64,000 bases of DNA, taken from sequence record OZ035789.1. One strand, 5' to 3'. The notes under the pieces are model-generated. The model was given only the letters and a program-made list of their open reading frames with translations. It was not told the DNA's origin and did no database searches. The translations under genes were made by a program, and so were the position numbers. The DNA is from Tequatrovirus BCH953P4. This document shows, piece after piece, positions 2,810-34,000 of the stretch; within the stretch, counting starts at the first letter, position 1, and each line of letters starts with the position of its first letter.

Positions 2810-3540
2810 TTTCCAGTATAATCCTTTTTAGCAATATGAGTCTCACCGGTGTTCCACCAATGGTCAACTAAATAAAACTGATTTTCGTACACATGAAGAC
2901 TTCCAACGTTCCATATAATAGAACCTGCTTTATATTGCCGCGATGGGTCGCCTGCATTCAAATCAGATACTAATTTATCTAGTACGTATTTTTGCCAAGC
3001 ATAATCATTACGATAGCCTGCCCAGCAATCATTGCTTCTCATGCTAACAACCGCATTGACTTTCTTATCACGAATCAGGTACTGTACTGTATTAGTACAC
3101 ATGAAATCTGACATACCATCTTTATTGTAATCAAATTGCATGGATGGACGAGTATAAATCATGATACCACGTCGAGAATCAGGATTTTGACCAAGTTCAG
3201 CTAAACACATATCATACTGGGCATAGTTATCTTCTGACCAAATAGCCCAACCATAATTCGAGTTAATTTCGCCTTTAGAAGATGCTACTTGTTGCCAAAT
3301 CTTCGGTGTTTCACCCGGAATATCTTTAACAAACAAACTCTTAGATTTATACCATTCAAGTTCACGCTGAATGTATTCATCATTAAGAGCGCCAAAAATA
3401 AACGGTTCATCTGCTACAAATGATGCGCCAATAATTTCAATAGTTTTAACACCAGTTTTATCAACTACGAAATCTTTTTCCTTTAATGCAGTTCCCAAAT
3501 AAAAACGGATTTCTTCAACTGTCATAGAGTCATTAATCAT
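2800..3540 (-). CDS. 42: dCMP hydroxymethylase (thymidylate synthase fold)
   Basis: 246 aa, same length as T4 gp42; conserved position upstream of the glycosyltransferase and uvsX. Confidence 0.88.
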   Translation of the reverse strand: MINDSMTVEEIRFYLGTALKEKDFVVDKTGVKTIEIIGASFVADEPFIFGALNDEYIQRELEWYKSKSLFVKDIPGETPKIWQQVASSKGEINSNYGWAIWSEDNYAQYDMCLAELGQNPDSRRGIMIYTRPSMQFDYNKDGMSDFMCTNTVQYLIRDKKVNAVVSMRSNDCWAGYRNDYAWQKYVLDKLVSDLNAGDPSRQYKAGSIIWNVGSLHVYENQFYLVDHWWNTGETHIAKKDYTGKWK

Positions 3541-3693
3541 TTAAACCTCAATTGATGCATTCATATTTAAATTGTAACAGTAATAAACCCCACCCTATGA
3601 TAAGAGTTGGAATCATAGCAGGAACTGTTACGCTATAGTATATACTTATTATAACCATCAAGATTAAAAGCAACACTGCTATAATTTTGCTTT

Positions 3694-3945
3694 TCATTCT
3701 TTCTCTCTGATGATAATTACCTGATTTGGCTGTGCAGACTTTTTAGTTTCACCAGCAATTGACCAAATAAATGTAATAAACCAACCAATAATTGACCAGT
3801 TAAACAGTAAAGATGTGAAAAAGATTCCTACTGTCGATTTTGACCCACGCATCAAGGCGATAAACCATGGAAGCATGTATATAATAATAGCCAACACGCC
3901 TGAAACTAAAACCATAAAAATTGAACCTGCTACTAAAGTTTCCAT
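3694..3945 (-). CDS. imm: Imm superinfection immunity membrane protein
   Basis: 83 aa, two hydrophobic helices; T4 imm is 83 aa and lies between 43 and 42. Confidence 0.8.
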   Translation of the reverse strand: METLVAGSIFMVLVSGVLAIIIYMLPWFIALMRGSKSTVGIFFTSLLFNWSIIGWFITFIWSIAGETKKSAQPNQVIIIREKE

Positions 3946-3952
3946 GTTTTCC

Positions 3953-4345
3953 TCACTTAGTCAAATTTTTTACACATGAATTATAAGAATTCACTACATA
4001 CTCCATCGGAGCATTTTTACCAGTACGCCATTGGTAATTATTAGCCCAATTAGCCCAAATTTCGGCGCAGTAGTTTTCAATTTTTTCTTCGCGTGTAATT
4101 ACATCAGAATTACGATATGCTTGAGCAGATTCATCTGGACGAATAGCTTCGTCAAAATTCGCCTGCATTTGTTCTACTGTTTGCTTTGGAGCTTCTTTAT
4201 AACACTTGACATTAGGATTATAAAATTTGCTTGAACAGTTTACAATTTTTCCTGCATCAGACTGATTTACTACCGGTCCTTGAGCTACACAACCAGTAAG
4301 ACCTAATGCAATAACCAAAATAGCGATTTTCATTTCATTCTCCAA
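3953..4345 (-). CDS. predicted lipoprotein (signal peptide with LTGC lipobox), imm.1 position
   Basis: 130 aa; N-terminal MKIAILVIALGLTGC; directly downstream of an early promoter. Confidence 0.65.
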   Translation of the reverse strand: MENEMKIAILVIALGLTGCVAQGPVVNQSDAGKIVNCSSKFYNPNVKCYKEAPKQTVEQMQANFDEAIRPDESAQAYRNSDVITREEKIENYCAEIWANWANNYQWRTGKNAPMEYVVNSYNSCVKNLTK

Positions 4346-8224: not shown

Positions 8225-9184
8225 TCACTTCCACTGCATTTCACATGCTAATTGAATGAAAAGATAAGCTAAATGTAATTCAGTGTTAGCTGCAATTCCA
8301 TGATACTGATTATTTTCACCAACAATTTCGTACATACGAATAATACTTTGCGGAGTTACACGTGAATAGATTTCTTCGGCAAGTTTACCCACAAACCACG
8401 AATAATCAGCCGCATATTTTGGTGCTAAAGCTCTGAGTTGTTTAACATCTTTATTTTTGAGAGACTCAAGAACATCATCAATAGCACCACGATCGTTAGT
8501 AACCAGTGATAAAATACCAGCATCCAAAACACCTTTAGATGAATAACTATCGAGCTCGCCAATAGTTTTACGAAAATCAGGAAAATTCTTTTTAACCAAA
8601 GCTGCTACAACTTTCATATCAGCTATAGCAATTCCTTCATGCTTGCAGATTTCAGTCAATCGACGAATCATCTGCTTCATCATTTCAATTTTATCTTCAT
8701 CGGTCGGTTGACCGAATGTAATAACTCGGCAGCGTGACTGAAGCGGTTTAATAATACCATCAATATTGTTAGCAGTAATAATAATACTACAGTTTGAACT
8801 ATAAGCTTCCATAAAGGAACGAAGATGTCGCTGAGATTCTGCTAAACCTGAACGGTCAAATTCATCAATAACAATTACCTTTTGACGACCATCAAATGAA
8901 GCTGCACTCGCAAAATTAGTTAAAGGACCACGAACGAAATCAATTTTACAATCTGATCCATTCACAAACATCATATCAGCATTTACATCATGACACAATG
9001 CTTTTGCTACAGTTGTTTTACCTGTTCCTGGAGAAGGAGAATGAAGAATAATATGTGGAATCTTACCTTTACTTGTAATAGATTTAAAGGTTTCTTTATC
9101 AAAGGCGGGAAGAATACATTCATCGATAGTAGATGGACGATATTTCTGTTCAAGAATGTGTTCTTTTTCATTTACGGTAATCAT
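8225..9184 (-). CDS. 44: clamp loader ATPase subunit (AAA+, RFC-like)
   Basis: 319 aa from MITVNEKEH; Walker [11 protein letters not shown]; arginine finger SRC. Confidence 0.9.
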
Positions 9185-9216
9185 AATTTCCTCATTCAAG
9201 TTTTAGTGTAAATTAT

Positions 9217-9234
9217 AAAGGGCCGAAGCCCTTT
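9217..9234 (-). terminator. hairpin AAAGGGC-UUCG-GCCCUUU between genes 45 and 44
   Basis: 7-bp stem, UUCG loop on the minus strand. Confidence 0.6.
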
Positions 9235-9235
9235 A

Positions 9236-9922
9236 TTAAAAATCGTGGGTAGAATCAGCTTCAAGAGCTACCACATAATTCGCGTGTTCACCTTCAAATT
9301 TAGCAGCACCTTGTTTACCTTTTGCCCAGAGCAGAAGTTTATAATTTCCTGGTTGCATTTTCATATTTGCCATATTGATAATGAAATTAAATGTATTTTC
9401 ACCATCATAATCACCAAGAGTCAAAGAATATTTAACACGGGTCAGAGCAGAATCTTCTACTTTATTAAAACCGTTAATTACGATTTTACCTTCTTTTACT
9501 GTGATAGCAATTGTATCAATCTGCAGACCGCGAGATACACGCAACAGCTGTTGAAGGTCTTCAGCTTTAATTTCGGTAACAACAGATGCTACCGGGAATG
9601 GAATTGGTTTATTAGGAGCAACTACTGTACTCGGATCGGCTGCTGGCCAAAAAATTGTTGAGCGAGCATCAGCAATTTTAATATTTCCATCTTCTGATTG
9701 CGAAATTTCTGCATCATCATTAACTAGAGACAGAATACCGAGAAAACCGTTCAAATCGTAAATTGCTACATCAAAATCAATAACGTCAGAAATATTTGCT
9801 TCCGCATAAGTTGTACCATTAACTGCGCGAGTCATAATAAATTGACCGGATTTAAGCATAATACCGGAGTTAATAGTAGCGAAATTTTTCAAAATATTCA
9901 GTGTGTCTTTAGATAATTTCAT
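9236..9922 (-). CDS. 45: sliding clamp
   Basis: 228 aa as in T4 gp45; position upstream of 44/62. Confidence 0.9.
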   Translation of the reverse strand: MKLSKDTLNILKNFATINSGIMLKSGQFIMTRAVNGTTYAEANISDVIDFDVAIYDLNGFLGILSLVNDDAEISQSEDGNIKIADARSTIFWPAADPSTVVAPNKPIPFPVASVVTEIKAEDLQQLLRVSRGLQIDTIAITVKEGKIVINGFNKVEDSALTRVKYSLTLGDYDGENTFNFIINMANMKMQPGNYKLLLWAKGKQGAAKFEGEHANYVVALEADSTHDF

Positions 9923-10806
9923 TTCAATTTCCTATTTACATAATAGTTAGACCAGGACCGTACAGCACCCTGATAAGATTCGTCGTTAAACCCATTAGCT
10001 ACTGCAATTTTACGAAATTTATTATAACTCGGTTTTCCGTAAGCATGCCATAAAGATTTTAATTCATCTTCATGTTCAATCCAAGTTCCTCTAGCTTTAG
10101 ATTTTCTAAATTTTGATTTGAATTCCGGTGAATTATTTCTAACAGTTGCTTGAATTGAAGCCCTCTGTCTTCTTTCAGCATTATTCCATAACTCTTTTTG
10201 AGATTTAGAAATTTTTGATTTTACACTTTCTGAATTCATTATATCACTAAACTTTTTAGCATAACTACAATCAAGATATTTCAATTTCATCTTATTTGAA
10301 AGTTTAAGCTTTTTCTCATCGGTCCAGTGATTCTTCATTGAATTAGATATTTTGTATTTTACGTCAGAACTATGTTTGTAACCTTTACGAATACCAACAT
10401 AATCGGGCGTAATTTCAGATTGCGAAAGCTTTACAATTTTTCCAGTTAAAACATTTTTATATGTTCCATATCCTTTAGCGCCAATTAAAGTATTTTCATC
10501 TGCGTATGCTTTATTAAAATATTTTATATTACTTTTTGCTTTAACTTTTAATTGAAAAAATCTTTCCAATTTTCTTGGATCTAATATAGTTTCAGCTAAA
10601 ATTTTGACGGTATATTTAGTGGTTTTAATAAGCTCAAAATATTCATCGCTATAACTCGATGACACGCTTCCAGTATAAATCTTTCCAGCTGAATCAATTA
10701 TATTTGTTCCATCGAAAATTGCGTCAATTTTCGAACCTATATAATAACATGGAAAAATATTTTTAGCTTCCCGCTCTGGAAAGCTAATAAGATATACTAA
10801 ATTCAT
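9919..10806 (-). mobile_element. free-standing GIY-YIG homing endonuclease (Seg-like), inserted between rpbA and 45
   Basis: 295 aa; N-terminal VYLISF...CYYIGSK GIY-YIG motif; lysine/serine-rich C-terminal DNA-binding-like repeats; 4-bp overlaps with both neighbours. Confidence 0.7.
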
Positions 10807-11192
10807 TTATTAAAATCAGCTGCGATTGTTTCGGCAACAATTTGAGCAGCAACAATCAGACGTTCATCTGCATTGCCGCAATATTCATCTTCAAGGCGTT
10901 CACCACATGAAGTCATAATAAATTTAGCACCGGCGTTTAGGGATTCTGTAGTATGTTTGCGCATTAGTTCAATCCATTTATTACTTACTTCACGATCGAT
11001 AGCTTCATAATACGCATGACGAGCAGGTGCAGATTTAATTTTGTTCTGAATAACTTCCATTGCGTTATCAGAAAGAGACAAAACCCATGCTCGACGAATT
11101 TTATTTTGGTTTTGTGGATTTGATTCAGAACGCACGTGTTTTGGCTGAATATCTTTTACATCAACAGTATAATTCACAGTAATTTTAGTCAT
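10803..11192 (-). CDS. rpbA: RNA polymerase binding protein RpbA
   Basis: 129 aa as in T4 rpbA; position between 46 and 45. Confidence 0.75.
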
Positions 11193-11201
11193 AATACACC
11201 T

Positions 11202-11393
11202 TTAGTCATAATAATCAGTGACAGTCCAAGCTTCATTTCTATTGGACATTATTTTTGTATATTCTGCTTTAAATGCATTCCTAAGCATAGATTCAGTAAC
11301 TATATGCTCTTCATTAGAAAAATTATTTCTCAGAATATATCGTTTTATTTCAGGAATAGTTAATAGATGCTGTCCGGTTGAATATTCTGCCAC
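11202..11393 (-). CDS. small hypothetical protein (45.2 position)
   Basis: 63 aa ORF, syntenic with T4 45.2. Confidence 0.5.
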   Translation of the reverse strand: MAEYSTGQHLLTIPEIKRYILRNNFSNEEHIVTESMLRNAFKAEYTKIMSNRNEAWTVTDYYD

Positions 11394-11403
11394 AATTCCT
11401 CCG

Positions 11404-11411
11404 TATAAATA
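11404..11411 (+). promoter_or_regulatory. late promoter TATAAATA upstream of the plus-strand HNH endonuclease
   Basis: exact TATAAATA octamer 34 bp upstream of the ATG at 11445. Confidence 0.5.
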
Positions 11412-11444
11412 TGTTTATCACTCGCTGTATCAAAAGGATATGTT

Positions 11445-12161
11445 ATGAATTATAAACTAATTTATGAAAAGTTAATCTCTAATGCTAAATCTCGAAAACT
11501 TGATTGCTATACTGAATCTCATCACATTATACCACGCTGTTTAAATGGCAGCGATGATGCTTCAAACTTAGTAGATTTAACACCAGAAGAGCACTATGTA
11601 GCTCATCAACTTTTAGTAAAAATTTATCCTTCTGAACCAAAATTAGTATATGCTGCTAACATGATGACAGTTTCCACGAAATACGCTAAACGCAACAATA
11701 AAACTTTCGGTTGGATTCGTCGTAAACTCTGGGAAATAGAAAAGAACAAAGAATTCTCCCAGGAGACACGAAAGAAAATGTCTGATGCAGTAGCTAATAA
11801 AGCAAGACTAACTTGTCCTCATTGCGGTAAGTCTGGATTAAGCGGGAATATGAATCGTTGGCATTTTGATAACTGCCCAAATCACCCTAATCCTAAAGTT
11901 AGACCACCAATGTCTAAAGAACACAGAAATAATATCTCAAACGGGCTTAAAGCAATCGTTCTTGAAGAAACATCTTGCGAATTCTGCGGAATGATAGGCA
12001 AGAAATGCGTTATCGCAGCGCATAGAAATTTCTGCAAGAAAAATCCAAATGGACGCAAGAAAACTGAAAAGACTGGTACTTGCGTCCATTGTGGTAAAGT
12101 TACCACTTTCGGAAATTTATCAAGATGGCATAATGATAACTGTAAATATAAACCTAGCTAA
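11445..12161 (+). mobile_element. free-standing HNH homing endonuclease (Mob-like) with three C-terminal CxxC...H...C zinc modules; opposite strand to all neighbours
   Basis: 238 aa; ESHHIIPRCLNGSDD...NLVDLTPEEHYVAH HNH motif; repeats TCPHCGKSGLSGNMNRWHFDNC and TCVHCGKVTTFGNLSRWHNDNC. Confidence 0.8.
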
Positions 12162-13842
12162 TCTTAGCTAAACTAAATCTACCAACTTTTTCCATCTGAA
12201 TATGCTGACCATATTCTTGTGGGTCATGGTCTTTATGCGAAATTATGAAGAAGTTGGTATCCTTCAAACCATCTAAAATTTTAGCTACATTTTTAATACC
12301 TTCAGCATCAAATGCACCGTCATACACTTCATCAAGAAATAAACAACTTATTTTAACACCTGAAACTTTTTCAGCAATATCACGCCAAGTAAATAAAAGA
12401 GCAATATCAATTCGTGCTTTTTCACCTTGACTGAATGAAGCATAACTAAAATCTTCACGACCACGGGATTTAATTGTCTCATTAAATTCTTCATCTAATG
12501 TAAACACATAATCCGCTTCCATTATTTTAAGATAATGGTTAATCTGCTTATTAAATAATGGAATGTACTTTTTAATAATAGCACCTTTAATACCAGAATC
12601 TTTGAGCATATCAGTCAAAATTCCTCGGTGGTATTTTTCCATTACTAAATTAGTTTTTGTCTTAACAATTTTATCAAGTTCTTCTTGAAGCAGTGCTATT
12701 TCATCAGCATGGTCAATAAACTCAGAAGATGCTTTTTCTATAGCCGCTTTAACCTTTTTAGCTTTATCTACTGCTGCGATCAAAGATTGCTTTTTATTGC
12801 GAATATCATTTGCCAACGACTGTTGGGTTTTAATATTATCTCGGTATTCATCAACAAGAACTTTTAAATTATCACGATGTGTTGAAAGCTGTTCAAACGA
12901 ATGCGTACATTCAGAAACTTTATCTTTAATTTTAGAAACAACTTTATCACCGGAACTCAATTGTGACAAACAGGTTGGACATAATCCACCTTCGTGATAC
13001 ATATTAATGACTTTATTATACGAGTCAATTTTTGATTTAATTAAAAATGCTTCTTGACCGATTTTATTAAATGCATCAGTTGGGTCTTCGTCTAAAACAA
13101 TATTAACTAATCTTTCATTAGCTTCTTCTATTTCCGATTTTAGCGTTCTAGCTTCTTTTGCCAAATCATCATACATATTTTGCAGACGAGTAAGGTTGTC
13201 ACCCGTTAATTTTTTCTGGCGTTCAACGTTATCATTATATATTTTAATTTGTTGGATAATACTATCTTTTTTAACATCAAGCACTTGGTTCTGCGAATTT
13301 AATTCGCGTATTAGTGCTTTATTAAGCTTATCCATTTCAGCTAATGTTCCTACCTCAAGCAGGTCTTCCACAAGCTTTCTTCGCGCAGGGGTCGACAAAC
13401 CCATGAAAGGGGTATACCCTGCTGTACCAAGGACAACAATCTGCTTGAAACTGGCATATGACATTCCGATAAGCTGTTCAAATTCTGCTTGGAAATCTTT
13501 ACTGCTGGCAGATTCATTAAGACGTGTACCGTTAACGGTGATTTCGAAAACGTTTGGTTTTTGTCCTCTTTTGATATAGTACTTTTTCTCATCATATTCC
13601 ATCCACAGTTCAACTAAAAGTTCTTTCTTATTTGTGCTGTTTATTAATTGACCTTTCTTTACATCACGAAATGGCTTGCCAAAAAGCCCAAACGTGATGG
13701 CTTCTAGCATAGTAGACTTACCACCGCCATTTCGTCCAGTAATAAGAGTTTTTTGAACCTTATCTAATTGAATGTCAATCCCATTTTGACCAACTGACAT
13801 TATATTTTTATATTTTACTCTATTAAGTTTAAAATTCTTCAC
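12154..13842 (-). CDS. 46: recombination nuclease subunit, SbcC/Rad50-like ATPase
   Basis: 562 aa; Walker A GRNGGGKST; long coiled coil; C-terminal signature and Walker B. Confidence 0.92.
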   Translation of the reverse strand: MKNFKLNRVKYKNIMSVGQNGIDIQLDKVQKTLITGRNGGGKSTMLEAITFGLFGKPFRDVKKGQLINSTNKKELLVELWMEYDEKKYYIKRGQKPNVFEITVNGTRLNESASSKDFQAEFEQLIGMSYASFKQIVVLGTAGYTPFMGLSTPARRKLVEDLLEVGTLAEMDKLNKALIRELNSQNQVLDVKKDSIIQQIKIYNDNVERQKKLTGDNLTRLQNMYDDLAKEARTLKSEIEEANERLVNIVLDEDPTDAFNKIGQEAFLIKSKIDSYNKVINMYHEGGLCPTCLSQLSSGDKVVSKIKDKVSECTHSFEQLSTHRDNLKVLVDEYRDNIKTQQSLANDIRNKKQSLIAAVDKAKKVKAAIEKASSEFIDHADEIALLQEELDKIVKTKTNLVMEKYHRGILTDMLKDSGIKGAIIKKYIPLFNKQINHYLKIMEADYVFTLDEEFNETIKSRGREDFSYASFSQGEKARIDIALLFTWRDIAEKVSGVKISCLFLDEVYDGAFDAEGIKNVAKILDGLKDTNFFIISHKDHDPQEYGQHIQMEKVGRFSLAKIS

Positions 13843-31640: not shown

Positions 31641-32609
31641 TTATTTCAGAAGAGTAACCTCAGCGATTTCTTGCCAACCGTTTTTGTCGGTCATAATAAA
31701 GTCAGCAAGATAAAGAGCAGTACGCAGTGAAACATTACGTAAACGGTTAACATTGACTTTCATCCATGATAATGCTTTATAAGTTTCTTCATCAGAAAGA
31801 CCGCGCTTTTGCATCATGTCGGTTGAAAGAATAACATCTTCAACCCTGACCATAATTTCTTCATTAGTGTGAACACCCAAATCTAAATAAACTGAGCGGG
31901 ACACTAATGCTTGTAAATGTGGAGCAAGTTTAGTACCACGGTCTAATTCGCGGTCAATGTCAACGTTTGTGATAAAAACAATCGTTCCTTTAAATTCAAA
32001 CTCACGCTCAATGCCTTTTTCTTCTAAGTAAGAAGATGCGGTGCTCCAGCAGACTTTACGGGTCTCTCCAGTGTCCAGAGCAGCTTTCAGAAGATTAAGA
32101 ATGTCCATATCAGAGAAAACATCCACATCATCAATCAAAAGGACAGAATTCTCTTCACGATTATTCCAAAGCTGTTCATAAAGACCGATACCAGAGATTT
32201 TACCATTAATGCTTTTATACTCAATGTATCCAATATCATTTGCTTTATTTAAAGCTTTATCTAAAGAATACGTTTTACCAATACCTGCTGCTCCCGAGAT
32301 AATTAATGAACGAATGTTTCCGTTAATAATACCATTCGTCATCATTCCCATAACATTAAATCTTTTATTAATGCGGGTTTTCATATCTTCATACGATTCT
32401 TTAACTTCTTCAACTTTTACACCATCATATGAAATGTCTGATTTGTAAACCCAAACACCGCGACGTTTACCGTCAATTTCAACAAAAACTTTACCATCTC
32501 CTTGTGCATCTACCGGAGCATTATCTGGGAACCATTCGCCTAAGAGCTCAAAAGTTCCAGAGATTTCTTTACCGAAGTAGATACCCTTATTGATAGTTAC
32601 AGTTTTCAT
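31641..32609 (-). CDS. AAA+ / P-loop ATPase
   Basis: 322 aa; Walker A SGAAGIGKTY and Walker B VLLIDDVD. Confidence 0.7.
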   Translation of the reverse strand: MKTVTINKGIYFGKEISGTFELLGEWFPDNAPVDAQGDGKVFVEIDGKRRGVWVYKSDISYDGVKVEEVKESYEDMKTRINKRFNVMGMMTNGIINGNIRSLIISGAAGIGKTYSLDKALNKANDIGYIEYKSINGKISGIGLYEQLWNNREENSVLLIDDVDVFSDMDILNLLKAALDTGETRKVCWSTASSYLEEKGIEREFEFKGTIVFITNVDIDRELDRGTKLAPHLQALVSRSVYLDLGVHTNEEIMVRVEDVILSTDMMQKRGLSDEETYKALSWMKVNVNRLRNVSLRTALYLADFIMTDKNGWQEIAEVTLLK

Positions 32610-32666
32610 TTTATTCTCCTTTGATTTGATAGGACTACTATAACATAGTCCTATCAGTTTGTATAC

Positions 32667-32867
32667 TTATTTTGACATTTCTTCGATGTCACGACGATAC
32701 CCGTCACGAACTTCACGAAGAGCTTCAAGGCCACACATAGGCTCGATACCTGTAATGTGAACTTGATTAATCTGATACTCTACATCTTCTAACTGAGCGA
32801 AAACATAACGACGTTCAGCTGCACAACCAGATTTAGCTTTACCGAAACGTTTATTCAAAGTAGTCAT
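32667..32867 (-). CDS. small hypothetical protein
   Basis: 66 aa ORF downstream of an early promoter. Confidence 0.45.
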   Translation of the reverse strand: MTTLNKRFGKAKSGCAAERRYVFAQLEDVEYQINQVHITGIEPMCGLEALREVRDGYRRDIEEMSK

Positions 32868-32902
32868 TTTGTATCTCCAATTTACTCATTTGTTTTGATA
32901 GG

Positions 32903-32936
32903 TCTATAGTATCAACAACTACAGACCATGTAAACC
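32903..32936 (-). promoter_or_regulatory. early-type promoter
   Basis: tctatagta ... tgtaaacc with AT-rich upstream element. Confidence 0.5.
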
Positions 32937-32966
32937 GTTTTGTGAAAAATTTTTGAAATAAAAAAA

Positions 32967-32984
32967 GGGAGCCCGAAGGCTCCC
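32967..32984 (-). terminator. hairpin GGGAGCC-UUCG-GGCUCCC immediately after the nucleotidyltransferase-like gene
   Basis: 7-bp GC stem with UUCG loop. Confidence 0.6.
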
Positions 32985-32986
32985 TA

Positions 32987-34000
32987 TCATTTATAATAAC
33001 TTCGATGGTTTTCAAGATAGACCTTCTCAAGGAAGTCATCCCAAAAACCCATGTCCACTTTTTGCTGCATACCGTTCTTAGAAGCTTCAGTAGATGCTGC
33101 TTCTACTTGATCGACCACATCTTCCAAAAACTCTTGAACGGTTTTAAATGGATGTTTACCCAACTTCACGTCGAGAATAAATGGAGCATCTTGGAGTGGA
33201 TAAACCAAGTCACCAGTTTTGTAAATTTCCAATAGTTGAAGTCCACCACGACAGGCATGGCTCAGAGCTTTCCAGTCAATGCCTTCGTTGGCTTCGGCCT
33301 TACGAGCGCGTTCACCGTATTCAGCATCTAATTTGTTCAGTGACTGCTTAAGCTCAATAAGAGAAAGCGTTGTCTGATATTTACGACCCAACACAGTGTA
33401 GAACGTTTGTGGGCCTGTTTTCTCATGATTATGGAACACCCATTCACAGAATTCGTTTTCTGGAAGACGATGCTTAATATCTTCAACTTTAGTACGACGC
33501 TGCTTAATGGAACCGTCTTCTTGGTAATCAACCCATTGCTCAGGGATTTGATTAACTACTTTCAATACATCACGTAATGCTGCCAAACGAGAACCCTTGA
33601 CACCGTATTTAGAAGCTTGCTTACGGACATATCCTAAATATGATTTCATGTTAGTCGTATAAAAACGAGAACGGTTGTCTTGAATAAACTTCCACACATC
33701 AGGCAAATCAGATTTAACCACTAGTTCAGGTGGAGTGTGAAGCATATCCAATGCTACGGTTTCACCATCTGCTGCTAATTTAAAGAAATATTTAAGACTG
33801 TATAGTTCATGGTCAATATCATCTTTAGTGTTTTTAGATGATGTATTGTTAGTGTTTTTACTCATATGTTCTTTAACATTTCCGATAAGAATATCGCGAG
33901 CAGGAGGAACAAAGATTTCTTTAAAATCTACATCAGATTCTGGGGTAGAAGTTCCATAAAGATGACTACCAAAATAGCTTTTCATTACTGTTTTCATCAT
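32987..34000 (-). CDS. nucleotidyltransferase-fold protein (Pol-beta superfamily GS...DxD motif at the N-terminus) with an uncharacterised C-terminal domain
   Basis: 337 aa; FGSHLYGTSTPESDVDF fits the hG[GS]x(9-13)Dh[DE]h pattern; last gene of a four-gene operon. Confidence 0.6.
   Translation of the reverse strand: MMKTVMKSYFGSHLYGTSTPESDVDFKEIFVPPARDILIGNVKEHMSKNTNNTSSKNTKDDIDHELYSLKYFFKLAADGETVALDMLHTPPELVVKSDLPDVWKFIQDNRSRFYTTNMKSYLGYVRKQASKYGVKGSRLAALRDVLKVVNQIPEQWVDYQEDGSIKQRRTKVEDIKHRLPENEFCEWVFHNHEKTGPQTFYTVLGRKYQTTLSLIELKQSLNKLDAEYGERARKAEANEGIDWKALSHACRGGLQLLEIYKTGDLVYPLQDAPFILDVKLGKHPFKTVQEFLEDVVDQVEAASTEASKNGMQQKVDMGFWDDFLEKVYLENHRSYYK

Follow-up and report, generated by a model that had tools for sequence, protein, structure and literature searches.

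A reading frame of 295 codons lying between rpbA and gene 45, the sliding clamp gene, of a T4-like phage is very probably a homing endonuclease gene of the T4 Seg family, free-standing and not carried by an intron, with SegG as its closest relative. It was found in a window of 64,000 nucleotides (the whole stretch of DNA that was analysed), part of the genome of a T4-like phage (Tequatrovirus). Over positions 9000-12500 of the window the best matches were to Salmonella phage F13076 (97.8% identity) and Escherichia phage N2 (97.7% identity). Several GenBank and RefSeq records automatically annotate the reading frame as 'homing endonuclease', and a literature search found no paper naming or characterising an endonuclease at the rpbA/45 junction. 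As judged by sequence comparison, the element is a member of the Seg family (SegG subgroup) with an apparently new locus and a putative new specificity.

Insertion between rpbA and gene 45

On the minus strand of the window the gene order is 43, regA, 62, 44, 45, the 295-codon ORF, rpbA and 45.2, followed by an HNH ORF on the plus strand and then by 46 and 47. The SegG-like gene occupies 9919..10806 (minus strand, stop codon included) and starts with ATG. It is flanked upstream by rpbA (10803..11192, minus strand; RpbA Pfam family PF10789, E 6.5e-42) and downstream by gene 45 (9236..9922, minus strand; gp45 families PF09116, E 1.6e-51, and PF02916, E 7.2e-33). These three genes are surrounded by those for gp45.2, gp46, gp44, gp62, RegA and gp43. 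The preliminary description of this DNA had reported 4-bp overlaps on both sides of the ORF, and both were read in the sequence as ATGA: the tetranucleotide at 10803..10806 holds the rpbA stop and the endonuclease start, and that at 9919..9922 the endonuclease stop and the gene 45 start.

The same description took T4 to carry no endonuclease at this position, which is correct. In T4, rpbA (32659-33048) and gene 45 (31917-32603) are separated by no more than 55 bp of spacer, with no ORF in it, and the possibility that T4 carries the same ORF as a non-nuclease gene thereby falls away. Alignment with ORF-less relatives showed that the cassette replaces 52 bp of T4-type spacer together with the last rpbA codon and the rpbA stop codon. 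Homology to these relatives resumes at the gene 45 Shine-Dalgarno sequence, GGAAATT.

A second free-standing ORF of this region, HNH/mob-like and 238 codons long, lies on the plus strand between 45.2 and 46 (11445-12161). Its product matches phrog_655 with an E value of 8.6e-69 and the Pfam HNH family with one of only 0.007. This ORF is antisense to the operon, overlaps the gene 46 stop by 8 nt and is situated 640 bp from the 295-codon ORF, such that the HNH and SegG-like cassettes together bracket rpbA-45.2. Both endonuclease genes are present, as in the window, in only 2 of 580 records. The 45.2/46 junction of T4 is a 55-bp spacer containing ATGCTTTA..TATAAT, which resembles a MotA-box promoter; in the window other sequence takes its place (11394-11444, beside the HNH ORF). 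The start codon of 45.2 in the window is GTG. Over the final ~250 bp of gene 46 (12100-12400), genomes with the HNH ORF and genomes without it are separated by about 48 differences.

Protein family and domain layout

The 295-residue protein matches PHROG 655, a family designated 'homing endonuclease', with an E value of 3e-32. Residues 1-102 align with the N terminus of T4 SegG (39% identity over 103 amino acids, pairwise E 6e-16), and a tblastn search against all phages returned T4 SegG at 1e-8. The two proteins have in common the motifs MN(L/I)VY...YYIGSK...E...YFN. SegG is an active GIY-YIG free-standing homing endonuclease (Table 1 of PMC2988022), in agreement with the T4 annotation. The protein belongs to a large family: an exhaustive HMM search retrieved 3096 cluster representatives at E<=0.001, with 147 of them at E<=1e-30. 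At E<=1 Pfam returned no GIY-YIG family (PF01541 or related) for the 295-residue protein, and an NCBIfam scan of the protein returned nothing. The SegE_GIY-YIG family (PF19835) was touched by 4 of 48 relatives with a best E value of 0.002. The SegG-like subfamily is too divergent for curated GIY-YIG profile models. Sequence searches of the PDB gave nothing relevant, whether the query was the protein alone or a profile of 48 sequences, and Foldseek matches were not significant.

The N-terminal GIY-YIG catalytic domain (residues 1-102) is encoded by 10501..10806 on the minus strand. Six residues of this domain (Tyr-22, Gly-24, Tyr-44, Ser-47, Glu-81, and Asn-98) are invariant in 48 diverse relatives, and a further seven (Tyr-5, Pro-19, Ile-23, Ser-25, Lys-26, Gly-46, and Phe-97) are nearly so. 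These conserved residues match the Tyr/Tyr-x-Gly/Glu/Asn core of GIY-YIG enzymes. The tyrosine of the GIY motif is provided by Val-4-Tyr-5 and the YIG motif by Tyr-22-Ile-23-Gly-24, with strands predicted at residues 2-8 and 21-26; the spacing between the two motif tyrosines is 16 residues, longer than in I-TevI. The invariant Glu-81 is on a helix spanning residues 78-87 and the invariant Asn-98 is downstream of it. By their position in the modelled fold, rather than by inspection of a residue-level superposition, these two residues would correspond to Glu-75 and Asn-90 of I-TevI. An AlphaFold2 model built from 15 homologues was confident for residues 1-100 (pLDDT about 90-95, with 78-79 at residues 41-60), and the N-terminal domain has the GIY-YIG alpha/beta fold. 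No obvious conserved counterpart of the catalytic arginine of I-TevI (Arg-27) was found in the subfamily among the 48 relatives; the active enzyme SegG is itself a member of this subfamily. The helix at residues 53-62 has no invariant arginine in these relatives, and the nearly invariant Lys-26 and the invariant Tyr-44 and Ser-47 are candidates.

The C-terminal half of the protein is long, basic, and helical. A helical linker (residues ~140-236, encoded by 10099..10389 on the minus strand) has degenerate NUMOD3-like repeats and is presumed to bind DNA. NUMOD3 is below threshold in the 295-residue protein itself (E 0.65) and significant in 24 of the 48 relatives. With hhalign, residues 169-200 aligned to the NUMOD3 stretch of I-TevI (Prob 29%). 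In this alignment of the family profile with I-TevI the catalytic domain remained unaligned and only the NUMOD3-like stretch was matched. The C-terminal domain (residues 237-295, encoded by 9922..10098 on the minus strand) is presumed to confer target specificity. The sequence FRKSKARGTW...FNDESYQGAxRSWxNYYxNRKxK is conserved in the homologues that occupy the rpbA/45 slot (P0001-P0004) and is absent from paralogues inserted elsewhere. AlphaFold2 model confidence for this domain is low. The layout is modular, comprising an N-terminal nuclease domain, a helical NUMOD3-like linker, and a presumed locus-specific C-terminal DNA-binding domain.

Paralogues with a different C-terminal half are inserted at another site, inside uvsX. 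The nearest paralogues (P0005 and P0006), from uncultured T4-like phages, have 36-38% identity over the N-terminal half. Where a paralogue lies inside uvsX (L023 3001-3855; L025 and L026, both 3001-3969), uvsX is split into a RecA_N ORF of ~305 amino acids and a UvsX_C ORF of ~185 amino acids, and one of the split ORFs gave a weak intein-splicing match.

A different reading is that the protein is a non-nuclease DNA- or RNA-binding regulator of the replication operon in which a GIY-YIG-like fold has merely been retained. The location of the ORF between the genes for an RNA-polymerase-binding protein and the clamp, the character of its C-terminal half, and the missing match to any curated nuclease family are consistent with such a role. 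Nevertheless, we regard it as very improbable in view of the SegG homology, the invariant catalytic-type residues, the patchy distribution and pseudogenes (below), and the occurrence of paralogues at unrelated sites such as the interior of uvsX. The assignment as a GIY-YIG homing endonuclease made in the preliminary description is backed by the homology to SegG together with the Tyr/Tyr-x-Gly/Glu/Asn residues, and we hold it with good confidence.

SegG, encoded between genes 59 and 32 of T4, is the closest characterised relative. Like the ORF described here, its gene is free-standing, has no promoter of its own, and is followed in the same orientation by an essential replication gene. The window ORF differs from SegG in having a different and longer C-terminal half (295 versus 210 amino acids), in its site (rpbA/45 rather than 59/32), and in the ATGA overlaps on both sides. 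The T4 genes segA, segE, mobB, mobC, and mobE are likewise sporadically distributed insertions between conserved genes, although the genes and the sites differ from those here. I-TevI, unlike the product of the window ORF, is intron-encoded (T4 td intron); no similarity between the two was detected in catalytic-domain sequence profiles, and the window protein has neither a conserved equivalent of Arg-27/His-31 nor a zinc finger.

Distribution, persistence, and expression signals

In Tequatrovirus, 23 of ~580 records (about 4%) contain the ORF, with >=97% identity, the same length in each and always the rpbA/45 site. Diverged homologues (55-62% amino acid identity) occupy the same slot in Mosigvirus, in Gaprivervirus (3 of 34 records, including VR26 and TH15), and in a fourth, metagenomic T4-like lineage (P0004/L020). 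An IMG/VR scan for close relatives of the 295-residue protein found none. Among the Mosigvirus copies that of AV114 is intact, and those of JM17 and G2285 are split by frameshifts; the copy in ESh24, a record flagged UNVERIFIED, is also split. In G2285 the DNA polymerase gene is annotated as interrupted (L007 6629-6887) with the remark 'unable to determine intron/exon boundaries', which suggests an intron or other inserted element in gene 43. As is typical of Seg-family genes, the ORF is free-standing in an intergenic slot and is present or absent among close relatives.

The dN/dS ratio among five intact Tequatrovirus copies is 0.07-0.14, indicating purifying selection on the protein. The ORF is no chance reading frame because of this ratio, the PHROG match, and the 23 same-length homologues. 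Between genera, the pS of the ORF is 0.67-0.69, compared with 0.51-0.79 for genes 45, 44, and rpbA. The tie of the ORF to the rpbA/45 slot is thus old, with no recent jump, since its pS is as high as that of the flanking genes. Patchy presence, purifying selection on the intact copies, and pseudogenes together make up the classic pattern of a homing cycle.

Two further readings bear on why the element persists. The ORF might be what is left of a homing endonuclease gene that has lost, or is losing, its function and is kept only for the Shine-Dalgarno sequence and promoter of gene 45. The persistence of frameshifted copies at the same site in JM17, G2285, and ESh24 shows that the DNA is retained after loss of the protein, and a remnant would also fit the lack of an evident conserved counterpart of the catalytic arginine and of a Pfam GIY-YIG match. 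However, the copy in the window is intact, the dN/dS values signify selection on the protein, and the Tyr/Tyr/Glu/Asn core is invariant across a family that includes the experimentally active SegG; we consider decay of the window copy improbable. Somewhat less probable still is that the nuclease has been domesticated, being kept for a benefit to the phage (exclusion of co-infecting relatives, or local recombination or amplification) and not for its own spread. A residence about as old as the genera, as suggested by the pS values, is compatible with this, as is the implication of Seg enzymes in the exclusion of T2 by T4 (PMC2993671); SegB, too, is reported to help in immune evasion (PMC13096335). 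However, presence in such small fractions of Tequatrovirus and Gaprivervirus, accompanied by pseudogenised copies, is the pattern of a selfish element rather than that of a beneficial gene. The selfish and domesticated readings are not mutually exclusive.

In T4 the spacer before gene 45 contains AATTGCTTTA-(10 nt)-TATAAAAT, by sequence a MotA-box middle promoter, and this is removed by the insertion. The T4 promoters Pm45, Pm45.2, and Pm46 are experimentally known, and gene 45 expression is strongly MotA-dependent (PMC6024815). Within the ORF, ~100 nt upstream of gene 45, there is a middle-promoter-like motif, TGCTTAC-12 nt-TATAAT (10021..10045, minus strand). In the other three lineages the corresponding place holds a perfect MotA box, in the arrangement (A/T)ATGCTTTA-12 nt-TATATT; the MotA box of the Tequatrovirus version (TGCTTAC) is imperfect. 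We put the chances that a promoter is embedded in the 3' coding region of the ORF at about even, and conservation of the motif could be a by-product of the conserved peptide Ala-Leu-Gly-Lys-Pro-x-Tyr encoded by common codons. The coding region of segG embeds promoters for the downstream essential gene 32, and T4 seg and mob cassettes more generally displace host promoters and embed replacement promoters (PMC2988022). An embedded promoter for the downstream gene is thus present in segG and only proposed for the window ORF. The Shine-Dalgarno sequence of gene 45, AGGAAA (9928..9933, minus strand), lies in the last codons of the endonuclease gene (encoding Asn-Arg-Lys) and is kept in all four lineages.

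The endonuclease gene itself has no Shine-Dalgarno sequence upstream of its start and no promoter of its own. The ATGA overlap with rpbA, lacking a Shine-Dalgarno sequence, suggests translational coupling at a low level. In or next to the ORF there was no exact match to the late promoter sequence TATAAATA, only matches with one mismatch, and a sigma-70 scan performed no better than shuffled sequences (14 sites found, 14.7 expected). A 10-bp hairpin with an A/U-rich tail spans codons 7-15 of the endonuclease gene (10763..10787, minus strand). Stable hairpins are found within the first ~25 endonuclease codons in three of the four lineages (also L005 ~3029-3064 and L020 ~3024-3048), with different sequence arms in each; that of VR26 has a 12-bp stem and a z-score of -3.1. 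No such hairpin is present in the 5' codons of the endonuclease gene of Mosigvirus AV114. The hairpins may attenuate translation or transcription, or may have arisen by chance. We assign no function to the codon 7-15 hairpin because its position is not conserved between lineages and it is absent in Mosigvirus.

Candidate target and proposed homing mechanism

Because a homing endonuclease is expected to spare the genome that encodes it, the target should overlap sequence differences between carriers and empty sites. Five carriers were compared with four T4-type ORF-less genomes over about 6 kb of alignment. The only fixed differences, apart from the replaced spacer, fell within 9890-9930, at the junction and in a block at the 5' end of gene 45. 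This block, a candidate immunity or target block, covers codons 3-11 (9890..9916, minus strand) and contains 13 fixed differences, reading TLNIL where T4 has TTALL. In phage LF73P1, rpbA is identical to that of the window and the codon 3-11 block differs. In the near-isogenic Gaprivervirus pair VR20 and VR26, 8 of the 16 gene 45 mismatches lie within the first 27 nt. The sequence ATGAAA(C/T)T(G/C)TCTAAAGA(T/C)ACTA is common to the ORF-less phages T4, RB69, and VR20, across genera. Carriers have many altered bases here with few altered amino acids, including codon-family switches for serine and leucine: CTG becomes TTA in the Tequatrovirus carriers, and TCT AAA becomes AG(C/T) CGT in the carriers from Mosigvirus, Gaprivervirus, and the L020 lineage. 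We lean, with modest confidence, toward a cleavage target no more than about 50 bp from where gene 45 starts.

Strict linkage of the codon 3-11 block to the ORF was considered and rejected, since the same block or a chimeric one is found in ORF-less phages; the block is accordingly described as a candidate immunity determinant. RPN226, LH2, and ERS-1, all ORF-less, have the TLNIL block together with a T4-type spacer. Among ORF-less Tequatrovirus alleles of codons 3-11 (gene 45 starting at position 2501 in the allele loci L015, L016, L017, and L018), the T4-type accounts for about 426 records and a chimeric G8-type for about 53. In the ERS-1 record, which is flagged UNVERIFIED_ORG, a deletion of 1 nt would put gene 45 out of frame; this deletion is probably a sequencing error. 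The association between block and ORF may come in part from mere adjacency.

The site at which SegG cuts gene 32 is roughly 300 bp away from segG. The target of the window ORF, as estimated from these comparisons, would lie within about 40-100 bp of the insertion, unlike that of SegG. For free-standing endonucleases, the distance between the gene and the cleavage site is hundreds to thousands of bp (PMC2988022).

In the mechanism that we propose, the endonuclease gene would be transcribed by read-through from promoters upstream of rpbA and translated at a low level by ribosomes that terminate on rpbA and reinitiate at the overlapping ATGA. When a carrier and an ORF-less relative infect the same cell, the enzyme would cut the relative's genome within or beside the rpbA/gene 45 junction, most likely in the translation-initiation region and first ~10 codons of gene 45. 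Recombinational repair from the carrier genome would then copy in the ORF and, with it, the neighbouring variant 5' end of gene 45. The T4-type intergenic middle-promoter-like sequence was lost through the insertion, and for this loss the cassette appears to compensate with its Shine-Dalgarno sequence and MotA-box motif. Because the cassette would supply these two elements to gene 45, its DNA would be hard to delete even after decay of the nuclease. We advance more tentatively the broader proposition, possible though on balance doubtful, that a single endonuclease lineage has been tied to the rpbA/45 slot for about as long as the four T4-like lineages have been diverging, that it cuts beside its insertion site unlike other characterised Seg enzymes, and that it persists because the Shine-Dalgarno sequence and middle promoter of gene 45 have become part of the cassette, which is effectively undeletable even where the nuclease is dead.

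The rpbA/45 ORF leaves the understanding of how homing elements work unchanged. It adds a Seg-type endonuclease whose putative target is at a new locus: the beginning of the sliding-clamp gene, which belongs to the most conserved replication operon that T4-like phages have. The carrier, empty, putatively resistant, and decayed alleles found in three genera constitute a natural panel for the study of homing, target-site immunity, and promoter capture. The element is also likely to give rise to marker exclusion and local mosaicism around genes 45/46 when therapeutic Tequatrovirus phages are crossed or combined in cocktails.
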